From Escherichia phage SDYTW1-F1-2-2_3, in the sequence record OR296290.1: a stretch of 64,000 nt of DNA; one strand, given 5' to 3'. The notes beneath the pieces were generated by a model, which saw only the letters and a list, made by a program, of their open reading frames with translations, was not told the DNA's origin and made no database searches. Below, in pieces: positions 5,579 to 31,327 of this stretch (position 1 is its first letter; every line of letters begins with the position of its first letter). The translations under genes and the position numbers were made by a program.

Positions 5579-6133
5579 TTACATTTTCCAATATAATGAA
5601 GGTGGGTCGTAAGGGTCAAATCCTGTGAGTTCACACAAGTATTTATAAACCTTAACGGTTAAGTTAACGTCCTGTTCACAATAAGTAAACATATCTTCAG
5701 TGAAAGCATCCCATGCTTCCTCTTGCTCACCGTAATCACCTTTAAGTTCCTCTAAGAACTCACCCCATTGCTTCAAGCCATGACCTCTTGGGCCATGTCT
5801 AGGGTCACCTTTCGGGTACTCAGGACTGTCACCAATACGGTCAGGTTTAAGATATCGACTAAGACATAGAGTGTCGAAGACGTTAAAATGATATTTAATC
5901 AGATTGGGATACATCTTCTTCAGAGCACAAAGGTCGAAGTCAATAATATTATGACCTACTAGCACATCAGCTTCTGTAAGTTTACGAATCCCATCTTCAA
6001 TTTGGTGAGGCCGATAGCCCCACCTTTCACCAGTTTCAACATCGAAGATGTAAATACACCACACTTTAGTTATGTCATCGTACAGTGCATTACTCTCGAT
6101 ATCAAATGCAAACACTTTCTTTTTCTTTACCAC
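5579..6133 (-). CDS. DEDDy-type 3'-5' exonuclease
   Basis: GTG start; Exo I FDIES, Exo II HNIIDFD, Exo III YCEQD motifs. Confidence 0.7.
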
Positions 6134-7917
6134 GGTGAAGCTCCATCTGCTTGATTGACGAGAGAAGCTGCATCCTCTCCGTTAGTCAAAACGAATGGAT
6201 TATCTTCATCAACTTCAAAGTCTTCCCTTTCTACAAGTCTACCGGTTTCGCTGATATACTTAGTATAGCAGACACCCGTCTGACCGTAGTTACGTTCTTT
6301 CAGTAACCGAATGACTGAGAGGTTCTTAGCTAAGCCGTCAGCTTGCTTGTCACGCTCAAAGCCAATGATACACTGACACCAACGCATAAGGGAACGAGAG
6401 CCAGTGAACTGCACTTCACGTACCTGTCCACCTTCTTCATGAGGGGCACCACCTGCCGGAGCATTAAGGTGAGATAGCACGAAAGCGGTAAAGTCTAACT
6501 CTTTACACATACCAGCAAGCTCAGAAGCAATCTTACTGATTTCAGTGTTAATCTCTGAAGGTGTTAAATGAGACACCAGAGCGGTAATGTTATCAAGGAT
6601 GATAAACTTACACTGGTTTTCAACTACCCAGAAACGGATACACTGTTTAATGTCTTCCCATTCGTTCTGCCCAAAGTTGTCATATAAGAAGAATTTATCT
6701 GCATAACGAAGTGCTTCATTACGCAAATCCTCCTCGTCATATTCAACATCGGGTCGGTGGAAAGGAATTGATGCTGACTTACCAGCGATGTTCTTAACAG
6801 ACATGCCTACCTTCTCTTCCAAGAAGAAGCCACCCCCATTAAAACCATGCTCTAAGCACAGATGAGCAACCAGCTCGTGAGCAATTAGTGTTTTACCACT
6901 ACCTACACCACCACCGATTGCTACCACCTCTCCCCATCGAATACCGAAGGTCATCTCGTTCAGAGTTTTCCACGGATATGGGATACCCCACTCCGCTTTC
7001 TTCAGAGCATCATCAAGGCAATCGAAGATTGTTACAGCGCCAGCAGGAGATTCTCGCTTTGCTGAATACTTAAGGATATTGAATAACTCTTGACCACGAC
7101 CAGACAGAAGCATGTCATTCGCATCCTTAATTTCTTTCTCCACACCGTTGTATGGGAAAGTTCCTTTAGGGATACGAGCAAACTTGACATGAGGGAATAA
7201 AGAACGACCTTTTGTTAAAGCTATCTCACCTGCATCGTCGTTGTCCATGCAGAGCACAACCTCCTCAAAACCATTTACGAAGTCTCGATTACGAGACAAC
7301 ACAGAAGAGATTGAACCTGCACCGAACGGTAAAGAAACACATGCTGGTTTAATGTTTGTTGCATTTGTAAAAGCTGTAAGGACATGGAAACCAGACATAC
7401 AAGATAGCGGGTCTTCAAAAATGAATAGCTTCTTGTTGTACACATCTCCACGCTGAGCCTGTGCCATACCAAATAAATCTGCTTCTTTCACACTGCCAAC
7501 GTAATAGAACTTCTTACTGTCAAGCAGCTTAACCTCATAACCGACAATGTTTCCATCACGTTCACGAGGAAAGAAGTAGCTGTCTGGAGTCTGACCATCA
7601 GTCTGACTTAGACCAATGCGACACTCAAAACGCTCTGATACGGCTTTAGGTATTAAACGTCGAGTAAGTTCACCCTGAGGAAGTTCTAAGCAATCATCTA
7701 AGACTTCTCTTAACTCTTCAGGGGATAACTCTTTCTTCTCGTTTGGAGTAGGTGTAGTGCCCTTTTCGAACACTTCGTAATTCCCACAACGGTTACAACT
7801 TCCCCACTCCTCACCTGTCTCTTCGTTACGGAAGAGAATCATGTGGTTGTGGGTTTTATCACGACCATGAGAGATACATTCCTTACAACCTGTGTCTCCC
7901 AAAATGATCTTTGACAT
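6127..7917 (-). CDS. primase-helicase (T7 gp4-like)
   Basis: N-terminal Cys4 zinc ribbon (CKEC...CNRCG), central primase region, C-terminal DnaB-type helicase with Walker [10 protein letters not shown]. Confidence 0.85.
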
Positions 7918-26371: not shown

Positions 26372-26402
26372 AAAGAAAAGGCGCTACCCGTTAAGATAGC
26401 GC
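26372..26402 (-). terminator. intrinsic terminator after 26428-27336
   Basis: Minus-sense GCGCUA-loop-UAGCGC followed by CUUUUCUUUU. Confidence 0.5.
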
Positions 26403-26427
26403 CTTATGCTTATTTGAATTATCTTAC

Positions 26428-27336
26428 TTATGCTGCCTGACGTGCCGCCATAATCTCAGCTGCCTTGCGCAATACTTCTTCTTCTTCTGCTTTCGCAGCT
26501 TGTTCGGTACGGGTAGCAACCGTTGAAGAGATACGACCGCGCAGACTTTCTAACTTCTCCTGCATAGCTGCAACAACCTTTTCCATTTCATCAGCGTATG
26601 AATCAAGTGATTCTAATTCCTTGCTTGATGCGTTCATCAGATAATCGTCAGAGATCGCTACCGTTGAAGCCGTGACTTTCTTGATGAGTGAATCAAAGGA
26701 CTTTTTAACTTTCCCCACTTCTTCACTCAAGGCAATAGTATTATCACTGGTAGCGCCATTACGCTCATCAGCCAACAATTTGGCTTCGATACGGATTGCA
26801 TTCAAGCGTTCAACTAAAGCGTAAATATCTTGGTTAAAATCTTCCTTGTTTTTCGCCGGGATTTGCAGATGGGCAGCCACGTTGTCATTGCAACCTTTGT
26901 AAAAATTAGGGTTATCGACTTCAATTTCACGGCCTAAAGCAAAGTTTTCGAAAGCATTTGACCAGCGAGCGCGGTTTTGTTCCATTTTGGCCTTAATTTG
27001 CGCTTCTTTCGCATCTTCTTTCGCTTTCGCTTCACCTTCCAGATTAATCCACTTCTTACGACCATTCGCCGCATCAGTGTTAAACTTGATAGGAGTTAAG
27101 AAAGTGATTGCAGTGGCGATCACATCCATATCGCGGAAACGTTCGGTTAACAGGAAATCAACCGCCGACTGCAATACATCTAACTTCTTGCCGTTGCTAC
27201 GGAAGTGCTGCAAGTGCCCTAACAGAAAATTAGAAACATCTTGTTTGATCGCCGCGTTATTACTACGAATGTTGTTAGCCAGTGCGTTAAAACCAGATTC
27301 TTTTACCAGATTAAAAATTTTAGCCATGATATTCAC
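26428..27336 (-). CDS. hypothetical coiled-coil protein (302 aa); first gene of leftward block
   Basis: Long ORF adjacent to the central control region; terminator hairpin immediately downstream. Confidence 0.5.
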   Translation of the reverse strand: MNIMAKIFNLVKESGFNALANNIRSNNAAIKQDVSNFLLGHLQHFRSNGKKLDVLQSAVDFLLTERFRDMDVIATAITFLTPIKFNTDAANGRKKWINLEGEAKAKEDAKEAQIKAKMEQNRARWSNAFENFALGREIEVDNPNFYKGCNDNVAAHLQIPAKNKEDFNQDIYALVERLNAIRIEAKLLADERNGATSDNTIALSEEVGKVKKSFDSLIKKVTASTVAISDDYLMNASSKELESLDSYADEMEKVVAAMQEKLESLRGRISSTVATRTEQAAKAEEEEVLRKAAEIMAARQAA

Positions 27337-28148
27337 CTTTCAATTGTAAGGGCACTATGCCCCGCTCTCTATGAGCTTTTTAAGTCGCCATTGACTTATC
27401 GATAATCACTCATTGTTAAGTAATTATTGATAAGCGGGGCGGTCTTGTCAGGAGTTAACCTTGCCGCCCCCTTATCCGTGATGTTTCATCTGGTATCTTT
27501 AATTAGTCGCTATAAACGAAGCCGACCTGATAGCGATGATCAATCATCACAATAAGGCTATGCGTCCGACTCTATTTAATTACATTACTGTAACCGTCGG
27601 CAATATCGTTTACTTTGCTTTCGCTCCCGCCTATCCTTTTATATCAGCTCTCTTTCGCTAGTCATCGCCCACTATGGGATACTATTGCGAAAGAGTCACT
27701 AACCGCCTACTATTCCGGCGTTTTATATCTTTCAGCAGGTTTACTACATAAACCGGCTATGTACTTTCATCGTAAGACGAATCTCAAGCCGTTCACATCG
27801 TAAACGTTCGCACTAAACCTTATTGTTAAATAGCAATTTGCCATTCTTTAACCATCCCCCACCGCCCTCAATTGGGCGTTAATTCGTCGGACTCGTCTGC
27901 CCTGATAAACTTCTTCACTGTAGCACCTTGTTAGCGATGGCTGCCGCTACCCTTAACCGTGGGCGATTAGCTTAAGCCGTTGCGTGTACTCAATGTATCC
28001 GCTTATCAGTGGCGACTTTTCCAGTTAAGGGATTGTAAAGCTGTTTACCCTGATATTTTAGGGAGCCTTACACCGTTTTATCTGGTATGTTTTCCGATGG
28101 TTATTATCATCAAACATATGCAACCGATATATGGGAACGTTTAAATTA

Positions 28149-28906
28149 TTAAAGAGCGGTAAATCTGTCAGTGTGCTTTCTCACACTACGCAACTGTAAG
28201 CCGTTGTTTCGCTTTTCACTGAAGCGGTGATTTGCCTAGTGAGTACGCTCATTATGGACCATGATGTTTTCGCTGTCAACCGCTTTTTTAATCTTTTTCG
28301 TCGTTCCCGCTATTGGGAGGATATATCAACCAGCTTTATTTGATTGAAGATTAAGCGGTGAGGCTTAACTCATGATTCACATTGTTAAAGAGCGTTTAGC
28401 CTTTTATAGTGTCTGCTAATCACTGCATCATTAAAGGCTTACTTATTCATTAACGGGGCGCCTAAGCCCGAACTAATCGCCGCACTGTGTGCCACCTTTC
28501 CCGCGATACGTTGATTTGGGAACTAGTTAACGTTGTTTTGTTAACTTGTGGTTAGTATGAACTACCTTAACCACGTTTGCAACCTCTTTTTTATCATCTT
28601 CTTTTATTCTTTTCCCTTATCTCGCGTGAGTCTATGCGAAAGGGCAAGATGATAAGTTTTTAAAGAGCGGGATGCTTTAAGTCATCGCTGACTATGCTCA
28701 CTATATATCAGGCTATTTTCGGTGTCAATACTCTTTTTAAGAATATTTTCACTTTCTAGCCTGATTTTTAAAGAGCGGGGCAATTTCTTGCCTTGTATGT
28801 TTTTCATCGTACCCGATGAATTGAAGTATACGCCAACCAGTGAGTAATGCAATAGGGTAGGGCAAATTATTTTAAACTTTTTCACTATAGGAAGATAAAA
28901 GAGCGG
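28149..28906 (+). repeat. array of five direct repeats with core TTAAAGAGCGG
   Basis: Copies at 28149, 28385, 28660, 28768, 28896; copies 3 and 4 share the 15-mer TTTTTAAAGAGCGGG. Confidence 0.6.
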
Positions 28907-29112
28907 GCGCACGTGATACATCAAAGGAAACGGCTTGTAAAGCGATATTTAGCGGCCTAAAACGCACTGTAGCGAGCTAAAAGGGAGTAAGGTATACAAT
29001 CACCTTAGAAAAGAAAAAAGCCTCATAGTGAGGCTTATAGGAAGGATTTAAAGCATCAGATAGATTATGACCATAGGCATGACCACGGCACAATAAAGGA
29101 GAAAGATTAAGC

Positions 29113-29487
29113 CTATGGATTTATACACTGACCGTTACCGGATTCCATTTCATTCATAGACTCATCAAAGAGCGTCAACGATGAGCGCATCAAGTGATCA
29201 ACCGTAATTTGTTTGCCAGTGGTTTCATTTACCAGTTGAATAGTTTTATCATATGATTGTACATGTTCGAAATCATTTACATGTAAAATAATAACCTTCG
29301 GTGACTTTTTACCAGTATCATAGTTTTCTACAATATAGGTGCACTGTAAACCGTCAACCGTAGCAGGGGAAAACGTTGCAGCCTTAACGCTACCCATAGC
29401 CGACAGCAGGACACCTAACAGGAGAACAACCAGAAAGAAGCCTACAAATACTTTCACTACGAATTTAATAATACCCATGATAATCAA
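29113..29487 (-). CDS. membrane/secreted protein (124 aa)
   Basis: N-terminal hydrophobic segment FVVKVFVGFFLVVLLLGVLLSAMG. Confidence 0.45.
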   Translation of the reverse strand: MIIMGIIKFVVKVFVGFFLVVLLLGVLLSAMGSVKAATFSPATVDGLQCTYIVENYDTGKKSPKVIILHVNDFEHVQSYDKTIQLVNETTGKQITVDHLMRSSLTLFDESMNEMESGNGQCINP

Positions 29488-29580
29488 CCTTTAGTTAGAG
29501 AACGTAAGAATAAAGCATATCAGCGACGAATAACGCCACTGTAACAACGAATAAGCACCGCCAAAAACAATCATGAATCA

Positions 29581-29847
29581 TTAGTTGCCTTTACCTTTAA
29601 ATAACGCTACTCTAAGCAGTTCGATCTCTTCCAGTGAAAGAAGAATCCGACGTTGCGCCAAATACTGACCAGCTAGAAGTGAATCCATGATGAGAGCAAC
29701 AGCGGGAAAACTCACCGTTTTAATATTATCGCCGACAATAAACAAGATTAAACACTTGTCAGAGTCATCCGTATATGAGAAATCGATCTCACCGTAATTG
29801 TGGGTTGGGATAGTAAAGCTGTATTCTTTATTCATTTTTGTCACCAC
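29581..29847 (-). CDS. hypothetical protein (88 aa)
   Basis: Track ORF in central island. Confidence 0.4.
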   Translation of the reverse strand: MVTKMNKEYSFTIPTHNYGEIDFSYTDDSDKCLILFIVGDNIKTVSFPAVALIMDSLLAGQYLAQRRILLSLEEIELLRVALFKGKGN

Positions 29848-30092
29848 TTAGGCAAATCACAATCAAGAAGACCAGCAAGCGACAAATCACCGTCAATGTA
29901 GATCGACTTGAAATCATCACGGGTAATTTCAAAATTAGCAAAGGCTAACCAATCCTTAAGAGGCTGAAATTCCATCCTGCAAAAAGTGATAACAGGCAAG
30001 ATTATCTGACCGTCAAGTGTATTAAACATGATAGAGCTTCCACCAACAAAACAAGAAAAACCGTTAGATAATTTAACTTCTTTAATAGCCAT
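29841..30092 (-). CDS. hypothetical protein (83 aa)
   Basis: Track ORF in central island. Confidence 0.4.
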   Translation of the reverse strand: MAIKEVKLSNGFSCFVGGSSIMFNTLDGQIILPVITFCRMEFQPLKDWLAFANFEITRDDFKSIYIDGDLSLAGLLDCDLPKW

Positions 30093-30118
30093 TTTTTACA
30101 CTCCCAAAAATAGATTAT

Positions 30119-30610
30119 TTACTTACTGGCCTTGATGCAGTTGGCTAGATTAACGTGAACTGTATAAACAGCATTATCAGTGTTATTGTAAACCGTGGTG
30201 GCAAGTATTGATTCATTCATCGGGCCATAACTGACCAGATTCGTGACAGCTTTCGCATGGCTGTAACGTTGTACAGTGCCATACGTCACCATATCCGCAT
30301 CATTATCAGTGCGCTTAAGTACCAGATCATTGTTAGGCTGATTGTCCAGTGTTTTGGTACTAACGACCAGACCATTACGAGAAACGTTACTAAATTTAAC
30401 TTTTAAAACTACTTGATTAGTGTCACTATCCGCACCATTGCAAATCATCCAACCCTTACTAACAGAATTAGCGAAGACACTAGCGGCATCAGTTGCAGGG
30501 GCAGGACTAGCAACAGCCTTATCAGAAAGAGATGTGACCAGTGCACTAACACCGATAGCTGCAACCAGTGCATAGCTTGCCAGATTTACTACCTGCATTA
30601 CCTTAGCCAT
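30119..30610 (-). CDS. secreted protein with signal peptide (163 aa)
   Basis: MAKVMQVVNLASYALVAAIGVSALVTSLS signal-like N-terminus. Confidence 0.5.
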   Translation of the reverse strand: MAKVMQVVNLASYALVAAIGVSALVTSLSDKAVASPAPATDAASVFANSVSKGWMICNGADSDTNQVVLKVKFSNVSRNGLVVSTKTLDNQPNNDLVLKRTDNDADMVTYGTVQRYSHAKAVTNLVSYGPMNESILATTVYNNTDNAVYTVHVNLANCIKASK

Positions 30611-30913: not shown

Positions 30914-31327
30914 GGACGGGGAACATACAACCGCAGAACAGACCACGGGGAAACATAGCAAGATAGTGCGGTAATAATATACCACTTAAATAATTGTATA
31001 ACTCAAACATCAAAGACCATTCGCTACGCTCATGCACGCTGAAAAAGAAAGTAATAAAAGAAATAATAACATACATCAATCATTATCCACTTAATTAATA
31101 CATACATCATTATTGCACTCATAATCATCACTATTGAAACTATTTACATTCAAACTATGGGGAACGTGGGCTATTACTTATGGGTATTATATCGCCTTAA
31201 ACTATTGGTACAGTGAGGGACTAGCCTTTCTCTCACTCAGTAAAGGGGAACTAAATAAACGGGTAGGTAATGAATAGGATGGTATACACGGGGAAAGAAT
31301 AACGGGGAGTAGGCACGGGGAAAGGTT
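30914..31327 (+). repeat. cluster of six ACGGGGAA-core direct repeats
   Basis: Copies at 30914, 30943, 31158 (TGGGGAAC variant), 31289, 31302, 31315; CACGGGGAAAG exact at 31288 and 31314. Confidence 0.55.

Follow-up and report, generated by a model that had tools for sequence, protein, structure and literature searches.

Probable boxA elements in the early promoter array of a Kuravirus coliphage, with a conserved structured leader RNA downstream

Escherichia phage SDYTW1-F1-2-2_3 (sequence record OR296290.1) is a Kuravirus (phiEco32-like) coliphage, of which a stretch of 64,000 nucleotides (nt), hereafter the window, is analysed here. Our subject is a 1.8-kb non-coding spacer at 27337-29112, lying among genes that are all on the minus strand and hence read leftward, in which an earlier reading of the sequence (the original prediction) had noted five direct repeats. 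The spacer is 90-92% identical to the equivalent stretch in about 95 phage records (ES17, ECBP2, myPSH2311, phiEco32, SU10 and others), which represent Gordonclarkvirinae podoviruses infecting E. coli and Shigella; it corresponds to the interval between genes 124 and 125 of phiEco32 and carries no annotation in nearly all of these records. According to the literature on phiEco32 and SU10, the flanking leftward genes are of the early class and are transcribed by host sigma-70 RNA polymerase, and a promoter cluster has previously been recorded in this spacer for both phages, although the molecular biology of the group has been called poorly studied. The spacer is the control region of the main early leftward transcription unit.

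Motif identity, strand, promoter coupling, conservation, the structured RNA downstream and the terminator-like sites were all computed in this analysis. The comparison covered 30 related loci, comprising 18 annotated phage records, four IMG/VR contigs, seven metagenome contigs and the window itself, from the genera Kuravirus, Suseptimavirus and Nieuwekanaalvirus. We consider it likely that the repeats are boxA elements, the RNA sites at which host Nus factors assemble, and that they act in the transcript and not as sites in DNA. What is new here is their arrangement, a modular array with about one boxA per promoter and three to five per genome, together with a large structured RNA.

The repeats and their match to boxA

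Five copies of TTAAAGAGCGG, with at most one mismatch, lie on the plus strand at 28149, 28385 (one mismatch), 28660, 28768 and 28896 (one mismatch). Their spacings of 236, 275, 108 and 128 nt are as originally given, and copies 3 and 4 do have the exact 15-mer TTTTTAAAGAGCGGG in common. The window has six matches where 1.02 are expected, a count that none of 100 shuffled sequences reached, the sixth being on the minus strand at 25370. A repeat finder independently recovered the same repeat family (its families D2 and D3). When the motif is read on the plus strand alone it looks like an array of iterons, but a strand-aware comparison with host RNA signals changes the call.

The transcribed, minus-strand reading of the motif is its reverse complement, CCGCTCTTTAA. 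BoxA is the RNA site bound by NusB-NusE(S10), with the gamma-proteobacterial consensus GYTCTTTAANA (PMC5725501); in the ribosomal RNA (rRNA; rrn) operons it reads UGCUCUUUA, in lambda CGCUCUUA, and in lambda nutL, with its spacer, cgcucuuaaaaauuaa. The consensus is found six times in the window against 0.64 expected, and four of these matches are copies 1-4, on the minus strand; the other two run antisense to coding genes, and ES17 does not conserve the one at 25372. The match is exact in four of the five copies, copy 5 (GCTCTTTTATC) being degenerate. Similarity continues beyond the consensus. The E. coli rrnH leader reads TGCTCTTTAACAATTTATCAG / TGCTCTTTAACAATTTATCAGACAATCTGTGTGGGC and copy 2 of the window CGCTCTTTAACAAT, while SU7, PAS59 and UKE3 each have one copy, GCTCTTTAACAATTTATC, that is identical to the rrn leader at 18 of 18 nt. 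Judged by sequence, the repeats appear to extend the boxA class by new members, whose arrangement is also new. Three weak matches of the Rfam family Ysr197 also fell on boxA copies and were set aside as not significant.

The exact core GCTCTTTAA, counted across the leader regions of the 30 loci, has 111 sense occurrences and no antisense ones. These occurrences represent 77 distinct contexts, in which C precedes the core in 67 (87%), and the second to fourth positions after it are A in 77, A in 76 and T in 64. These fixed positions beside the core lay outside the search pattern, the three after it being 83-100% fixed, and the further flanks are near random (about 0-0.8 bits). The conserved motif can hence be extended to CGCTCTTTAAnAAT, that is, boxA plus the start of an A/U-rich spacer as in rrn and nutL. 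Sequences upstream of the core are often exchanged between phages while the core itself stays.

In the literature that could be searched, which left out Savalia 2008 and Pavlova 2012, we found nothing on boxA, Nus factors or a structured RNA in these phages; no paper in it brings boxA and phiEco32 together, and the SU7, Kuravirus-expansion and BASEL papers are silent on the region. The right end of Salmonella phage 7-11, a more distant relative, has no boxA.

Promoter-boxA modules

A consensus promoter scan of the array returned two strong leftward sigma-70 promoters, at 28728->28700 and 28279->28251. A weight-matrix scan of 13 phages resolved the array into a series of promoter-boxA modules, three to five in each phage: in phiEco32 a boxA comes after each of the four strong promoters (at +119, +27, +9 and +82), and AidaStucki has five modules. 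Among 26 distinct arrays, 72 of 73 strong promoters have a consensus boxA ahead of the next strong promoter, at 9 to 434 nt from the predicted start (median 82). Six promoter-like sites of equal strength lie elsewhere in the window, and no boxA occurs within 200 nt of any of them. Transcription of the boxA strand is either predicted or taken from the literature, two of the array promoters being listed for SU10. The suggestion that the repeats mark a promoter cluster is thus true of the region, which has two strong and one weaker leftward sigma-70 promoters, but false of the motif, which lies at least 9 nt downstream of the predicted starts. We also considered the repeats as -10 or -35 elements on either strand and rejected this, as the registers are inconsistent between copies and the scans put the promoters elsewhere.

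The array does not stand at the head of the leftward block, as had been supposed. Four more leftward open reading frames (ORFs; 29113-30610, minus strand) form a small early operon upstream of it, closed by an intrinsic-terminator-like hairpin at 29018..29036 (minus strand; AAGCCTCACTATGAGGCTT + TTTTTCTTTT) that is the same element as a terminator in table S2 for SU10. Following transcription leftward from there, all elements being on the minus strand, the degenerate boxA-5 (28894..28904) departs from the consensus at positions 8 and 11. It is found in only some relatives (ES17, O18-011), and lies about 115 nt past the hairpin with no convincing promoter directly upstream. The weak sigma-70 promoter, TTGCAT-16-TATACT (28825..28852), has a weight-matrix score of 8.9 and a predicted start near 28818, with boxA-4 42 nt downstream; its hexamers and the +42/43 distance to boxA are conserved in ES17, 4E8, KarlSchell, AidaStucki and O18-011. 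BoxA-4 itself, (CC)GCTCTTTAAAA AT (28766..28776), has a small hairpin, GGCAAGAAATTGCC, directly 5' on the RNA. The first of the strong early promoters, TTGACA-17-TATAGT (28700..28728; 11 of 12 consensus positions), corresponds to the SU10 promoter 'ttgacaccgaaaacagcctgatatatagt'; from its predicted start near 28693 it is 25 nt to boxA-3, (CC)GCTCTTTAAAA AC (28658..28668).

BoxA-2, (AC)GCTCTTTAACA AT (28383..28393), equals the E. coli rrn boxA TGCTCTTTAACAAT except for the first base. Its promoter is present in phiEco32, SU10, EP335 and O18-011 and has been replaced in this phage. The second strong early promoter, TTGACA-17-CATAAT, occupies 28251..28300 when the A-rich UP-like tract upstream of it is included; it corresponds to the SU10 promoter 'ttgacagcgaaaacaacatgattcataat' and is kept in all relatives. 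Its predicted start is near 28244, and the 87 nt from there to boxA-1 hold covarying hairpins. One of these, 12 nt upstream of boxA-1, is a boxB-like hairpin GUGUG-AGAAAG-CACAC (28171..28186), whose stem covaries among relatives (ACGUG/CACGU, GGUG/CACC, AGUG/CACU). BoxA-1, (CC)GCTCTTTAATA AT (28147..28157), forms with its 5' flank the longest invariant run (AGAUUUACCGCUCUUUAA, 18 nt) in an alignment of 26 leader sequences.

The array is a mosaic: relatives differ by gain, loss and exchange of modules, and certain flanks recur in several modules. In SU7, PAS59 and MLP3 a 66-amino-acid (aa) ORF is annotated inside the promoter-boxA array (L003 3829-4029, L004 3823-4023 and L027 2825-3025), and the array region is therefore mosaic and able to take up small genes.

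The leader RNA and the early operon

Between boxA-1 and the ribosome-binding site of the next gene lies a non-coding leader of about 800 nt (28145->27349, minus strand) that is conserved in all relatives. The absence of a convincing ORF, as originally stated, was borne out: the minus strand of 27337-28180 has no ORF of at least 30 aa, and the region encodes no conserved protein, since the plus-strand ORFs of 27427-28144 are intact in 1, 1, 6 and 19 (the last a 41-aa ORF) of 26 sequences. A hidden protein gene in the structured part was rejected on these grounds. The leader is 85-93% identical to relatives, against 55-85% at the third codon positions of the adjacent gene, and in SU7 the leader is more conserved (87%) than that gene (76%).

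Folding of the leader alignment (26 distinct sequences, 75-93% identical to the window) with RNAalifold predicted 226 base pairs, of which 70 show double compensatory changes. Standard pairs occupy 99.5% of alignment cells, compared with 33-48% after a shift of the 3' partners by 1-3 columns, and the shifted controls give 5-11 covarying pairs in place of 70; none of 500 shuffles reached the observed values. The folded strand is the minus strand, for which 99.5% is paired versus 88.4% for the complement, G-U pairs making up 11%, and folding of the single sequence gives a z-score of -9.4 relative to shuffles. The leader falls into domain 1 (27847..28145; a closed multi-branch structure, helices 2-15), domain 2 (27549..27826; closed by a 10-bp helix, helices 18-27) and eight further hairpins, several of them covarying (27349..27548), all on the minus strand. 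The last group includes a GC-rich stem at 27436-27470 and, at 27349-27376, the sequence that had been described as an inverted partial copy of the repeat at 27361. That sequence is indeed present, but it does not represent a copy of the repeat: it makes up the stem of two small hairpins, both covarying, in the 5' untranslated region of the next gene.

Two further candidates within the leader were discarded. A third promoter from the consensus scan ('promoter C', 27451->27423) lies inside the covarying hairpin 27436-27470, and most relatives have CTGATA as its -35 hexamer. A conserved boxA-like variant, GCTATTTAACAAT (GCUAUUUAA), at 27826-27838 (minus strand) is 79% similar to copy 2 over 24 nt and belongs to a hairpin at 27828..27846 (minus strand; GCUAUUUAACAAU, repeat family D8). 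It has the C-to-A change known from the lambda boxA16 mutant, and the predicted fold places it in a base-paired stem, so that it is probably not a working boxA.

No family in Rfam 15 gave a gathering-level match anywhere in the window, the best E-value in 27200-29200 being 1.5 in a search taken to an E-value of 10. No transfer RNA (tRNA) or transfer-messenger RNA was found in the region, and BLAST of the leader against 5,426 E. coli genomes found no match, leaving mimicry of a host RNA unsupported. Conserved 25-mers of the leader were found only in four viral contigs and seven metagenome contigs, all of the same phage group. The leader RNA is a candidate new RNA family, absent from Rfam.

Other features of this RNA may be recorded here. 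The sequence ACCAGATNAAAC occurs twice in the 64 kb (0.06 expected), at 27483-27494 and 28075-28086 (minus strand); both sites are inside the leader and conserved in relatives, and the pair could be a protein-binding or tertiary-contact motif. The consensus fold also pairs AUUUACC, just 5' of boxA-1 (28158-28164), with GGUGAAU (27332-27338), which lies about 820 nt downstream in the Shine-Dalgarno region of the following gene. This pairing recalls the leader-trailer helix of rrn and the boxA-linked occlusion of the suhB ribosome-binding site; it gets no support from covariation because both sides are almost invariant.

Past the leader come a Shine-Dalgarno sequence at 27332-27339 and the first gene (26428..27339 with that sequence, minus strand; 299 aa, phrog_13018, function unknown), which is confined to the same set of related records (97). 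A strong terminator-like hairpin, the first of the early operon, follows at 26378..26405 (minus strand), with further strong ones at 25064-25081, 24977-24996, 22876-22900 and 22654-22679 on the same strand; the transcribed strand of the operon has 19 terminator-like sites in all, where 9.0 +/- 3.2 are expected. No strong minus-strand promoter was found in the scan between 14000 and 27400, so expression of the early block appears to depend on polymerases started in the array, and these must cross 0.8 to 1.6 kb of untranslated RNA before reaching the operon.

Interpretation and alternatives

The modules stand in tandem, and in each of them the transcript from a host sigma-70 promoter reaches CGCUCUUUAAnAAU after a few tens of nucleotides. 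In the mechanism that we propose, the nascent boxA would be bound by host NusB-NusE(S10) as each polymerase leaves its promoter; NusA, NusG and probably SuhB would then join to form a termination-resistant, RNA-chaperoning elongation complex of the rRNA-operon type. Such a complex might complete the untranslated transcript of about 0.8 to 1.6 kb, otherwise an expected target for Rho, aid the co-transcriptional folding of the 800-nt leader, and continue through the terminator-like hairpins of the early operon. The roles of boxA on record are anti-Rho activity and RNA-folding chaperone activity in rRNA, with anti-Rho activity also in CRISPR arrays (Stringer 2020). There would be a direct need for boxA in cis here, because a long untranslated leader and a terminator-rich operon follow with no strong internal promoter. 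Nus-factor binding and all its functional consequences are inferred from sequence comparison.

The closest system in signal type, and in what follows the signal, is the E. coli rrn leader (boxB-boxA-boxC; NusA/B/E/G, SuhB, S4). Both have the rrn-type boxA with an extra U, placed soon after tandem, very strong sigma-70 promoters, one of those in the phage with an A-rich UP-like tract; both have a hairpin ahead of boxA, in boxB-boxA order, and a long, untranslated, highly structured transcript after it. The phage differs in having its own boxA for each promoter, three to five per array, where rrn has one boxA after P1-P2. It also differs in its RNA, some 0.8 kb long and unlike rRNA or any Rfam family, after which come protein-coding genes, and in that the element belongs to a virulent phage. 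No GU-rich, boxC-like UGUGUGGG follows any of the phage copies, a further difference from rrn; boxB and boxC have been reported to be dispensable for rrn antitermination.

In biological setting the nearest parallel is the early leader of T7 (promoters A1-A3, boxA, RNase III site R0.3, gene 0.3), where a consensus boxA likewise stands in an untranslated leader ahead of the first gene. The T7 record places A1, A2 and A3 at 498, 626 and 750 and gene 0.3 at 925; the boxA, GCTCTTTAACA, is at 813-823 (L032 414-424), 64 nt past the A3 start, and is unannotated. In T7 there is a single boxA to the three promoters, and the leader is about 0.4 kb long, whereas here there is about one boxA per promoter, a leader of 0.8 to 1.6 kb and two large closed RNA domains. 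We know of no established role for the T7 boxA. The lambda nutL and nutR sites are also promoter-proximal in early transcripts with terminators downstream, and combine boxA with an A/U-rich spacer; the phage consensus CGCUCUUUAAAAAU is that of nutL with one extra U. Unlike the nut sites, the phage copies have hairpins 5' of boxA and no boxB hairpin 3' of it, are of the consensus, N-independent type, and are many where lambda has one per operon; nor was an arginine-rich, N-like protein found among the 19 early ORFs scanned. Outside rRNA, boxA upstream of CRISPR arrays protects these long untranslated RNAs from Rho, and boxA takes part in regulation in the suhB 5' untranslated region (Stringer 2020; Baniulyte 2017). 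These share the consensus but are chromosomal and single-copy, as opposed to a multi-copy array in a virulent phage that would borrow the host system.

Several observations weigh against the repeats being functional boxA elements of the kind proposed. Equilibrium folding gives the boxes no higher a probability of being unpaired (0.42-0.51) than their flanks (0.43-0.51), which says little either way, availability during transcription being outside what the method addresses. Copy 5 is off the consensus at its two positions, and in this phage copy 2 lacks a promoter. The leader shows no conspicuous excess of C over G (median C/G 0.95, with patches of at least 1.5 only in the array part), a composition that tells little about Rho loading, and the downstream sites look intrinsic, not Rho-dependent. 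The rrn-type complexes act mainly against Rho-dependent termination and are not known to defeat intrinsic terminators efficiently. No N-like protein was recognised among the 19 early ORFs with Pfam and PHROGs, small unannotated proteins being possible.

It seems improbable that the repeats are sites in DNA, whether origin iterons or an array bound by a phage regulator, both of which the original prediction had named among its possibilities, or operators through which a host protein acts on the early promoters. Direct repeats in a long non-coding stretch beside promoters would suit it, some copies lie just 8-18 nt past a predicted start, which is compatible with an operator, and an early 107-aa helix-turn-helix protein is encoded at 19983-20306. 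A DNA site would nevertheless not call for a boxA match that runs past the core into the spacer, nor for an absolute strand bias of 111 to 0. Distances to promoters range from 9 to more than 100 nt, and the spacing of copies (108-275 nt) is irregular and differs among relatives. As for an origin, DnaA boxes are at chance level, the minimum of cumulative GC skew lies at the strand switch at 30-32 kb and not at the array, and no replication initiator gene was recognisable beside the array in a Pfam and PHROGs scan of the neighbouring early ORFs. An array of regulator sites is conceivable, but no evidence speaks for it, and the identity of the repeats to boxA would have no explanation.

We give equally little credence to the array being chiefly a Nus-factor decoy, in which abundant boxA RNAs from three to five strong promoters would soak up NusB-S10, starve the host rRNA operons and so aid host shut-off. 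Several boxA copies per transcript behind very strong promoters would serve such a purpose, promoterless boxAs would mean upstream transcripts with two to four copies, and the copies are of the high-affinity rrn type with the extra U. A sponge, however, has no need of the near one-to-one pairing of promoters and boxAs (72 of 73) that loading in cis predicts, and the leader and terminator-rich operon supply a direct need in cis; the two roles are not mutually exclusive. Least credible of all is that the repeats are passive by-products, functionless leftovers of recent duplication and shuffling of promoter modules. The mosaic structure of the array and the flanks common to modules fit this, but passive duplication fails because the 9-nt core is invariant within diverged flanks, in 77 contexts and amid near-random sequence. 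Three positions that were not searched for are nearly fixed as well, and the conserved block is an exact match to an established functional consensus.

Returning to boxA elements that act in RNA, a more speculative extension, on the doubtful side in our judgement, is that the spacer is a phage-borne unit resembling an rRNA operon. The promoter-boxA modules would load Nus factors in order to make and fold an abundant, two-domain RNA of about 0.8 kb, specific to Gordonclarkvirinae and with an early function of its own, and the AUUUACC pairing would couple its folding to expression of the next gene. It would then be more than a 5' untranslated region, and might for example titrate a host factor, act against a defence system or prime replication. 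The leader RNA is directly open to genetics because phages Bas86-94 infect engineered E. coli K-12.

The boxA reading gives a concrete and testable account of a conserved, unannotated 1.8 kb in about 100 sequenced coliphages, many of them therapy candidates, and it indicates how a single promoter cluster can express the early operon even though the untranslated leader is long and terminators lie within. If true, it would add to lambdoid phages and rRNA another user of Nus-dependent boxA transcription, a group of virulent podoviruses that encode a sigma factor.

A scan of IMG/VR for pairs of the boxA core 95-125 nt apart returned at least 120 matches, about our chance estimate. The only contig with several matches was that of Corynebacterium phage P1201 (L041 2200-2960; record 5954-7554), where seven perfect 109-nt tandem repeats each contain GCTCTTTAAAAAT; because the host is an actinobacterium, this repeat is probably unrelated to the E. 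coli-type boxA.

Some neighbouring features were observed in passing. The ORF at 29113-29478 (minus strand) encodes a 121-aa protein labelled 'terminase' by PHROGs and many GenBank records, a label that looks doubtful because the protein has a hydrophobic, signal-peptide-like N-terminus (MGIIKFVVKVFVGFFLVVLLLGVLL...) and no Pfam hit. The 107-aa protein at 19983-20306 (minus strand) has a helix-turn-helix like that of sigma-70 region 4 (Pfam Sigma70_r4_2, E = 3.6e-7) and, from this similarity, may be an early transcription regulator. A tRNA-Arg (anticodon TCT) lies at 21745-21821 (minus strand) in the early region, in line with reports for phiEco32-like phages. Finally, four copies of TTCCCCGT (0.9 expected) fall within 30916-31322 (minus strand), arranged as two pairs with a separation of 27-29 nt in each. 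They occupy the non-coding sequence where the strands switch and GC skew reaches its minimum, a place probably close to the end of the genome or a terminal repeat.

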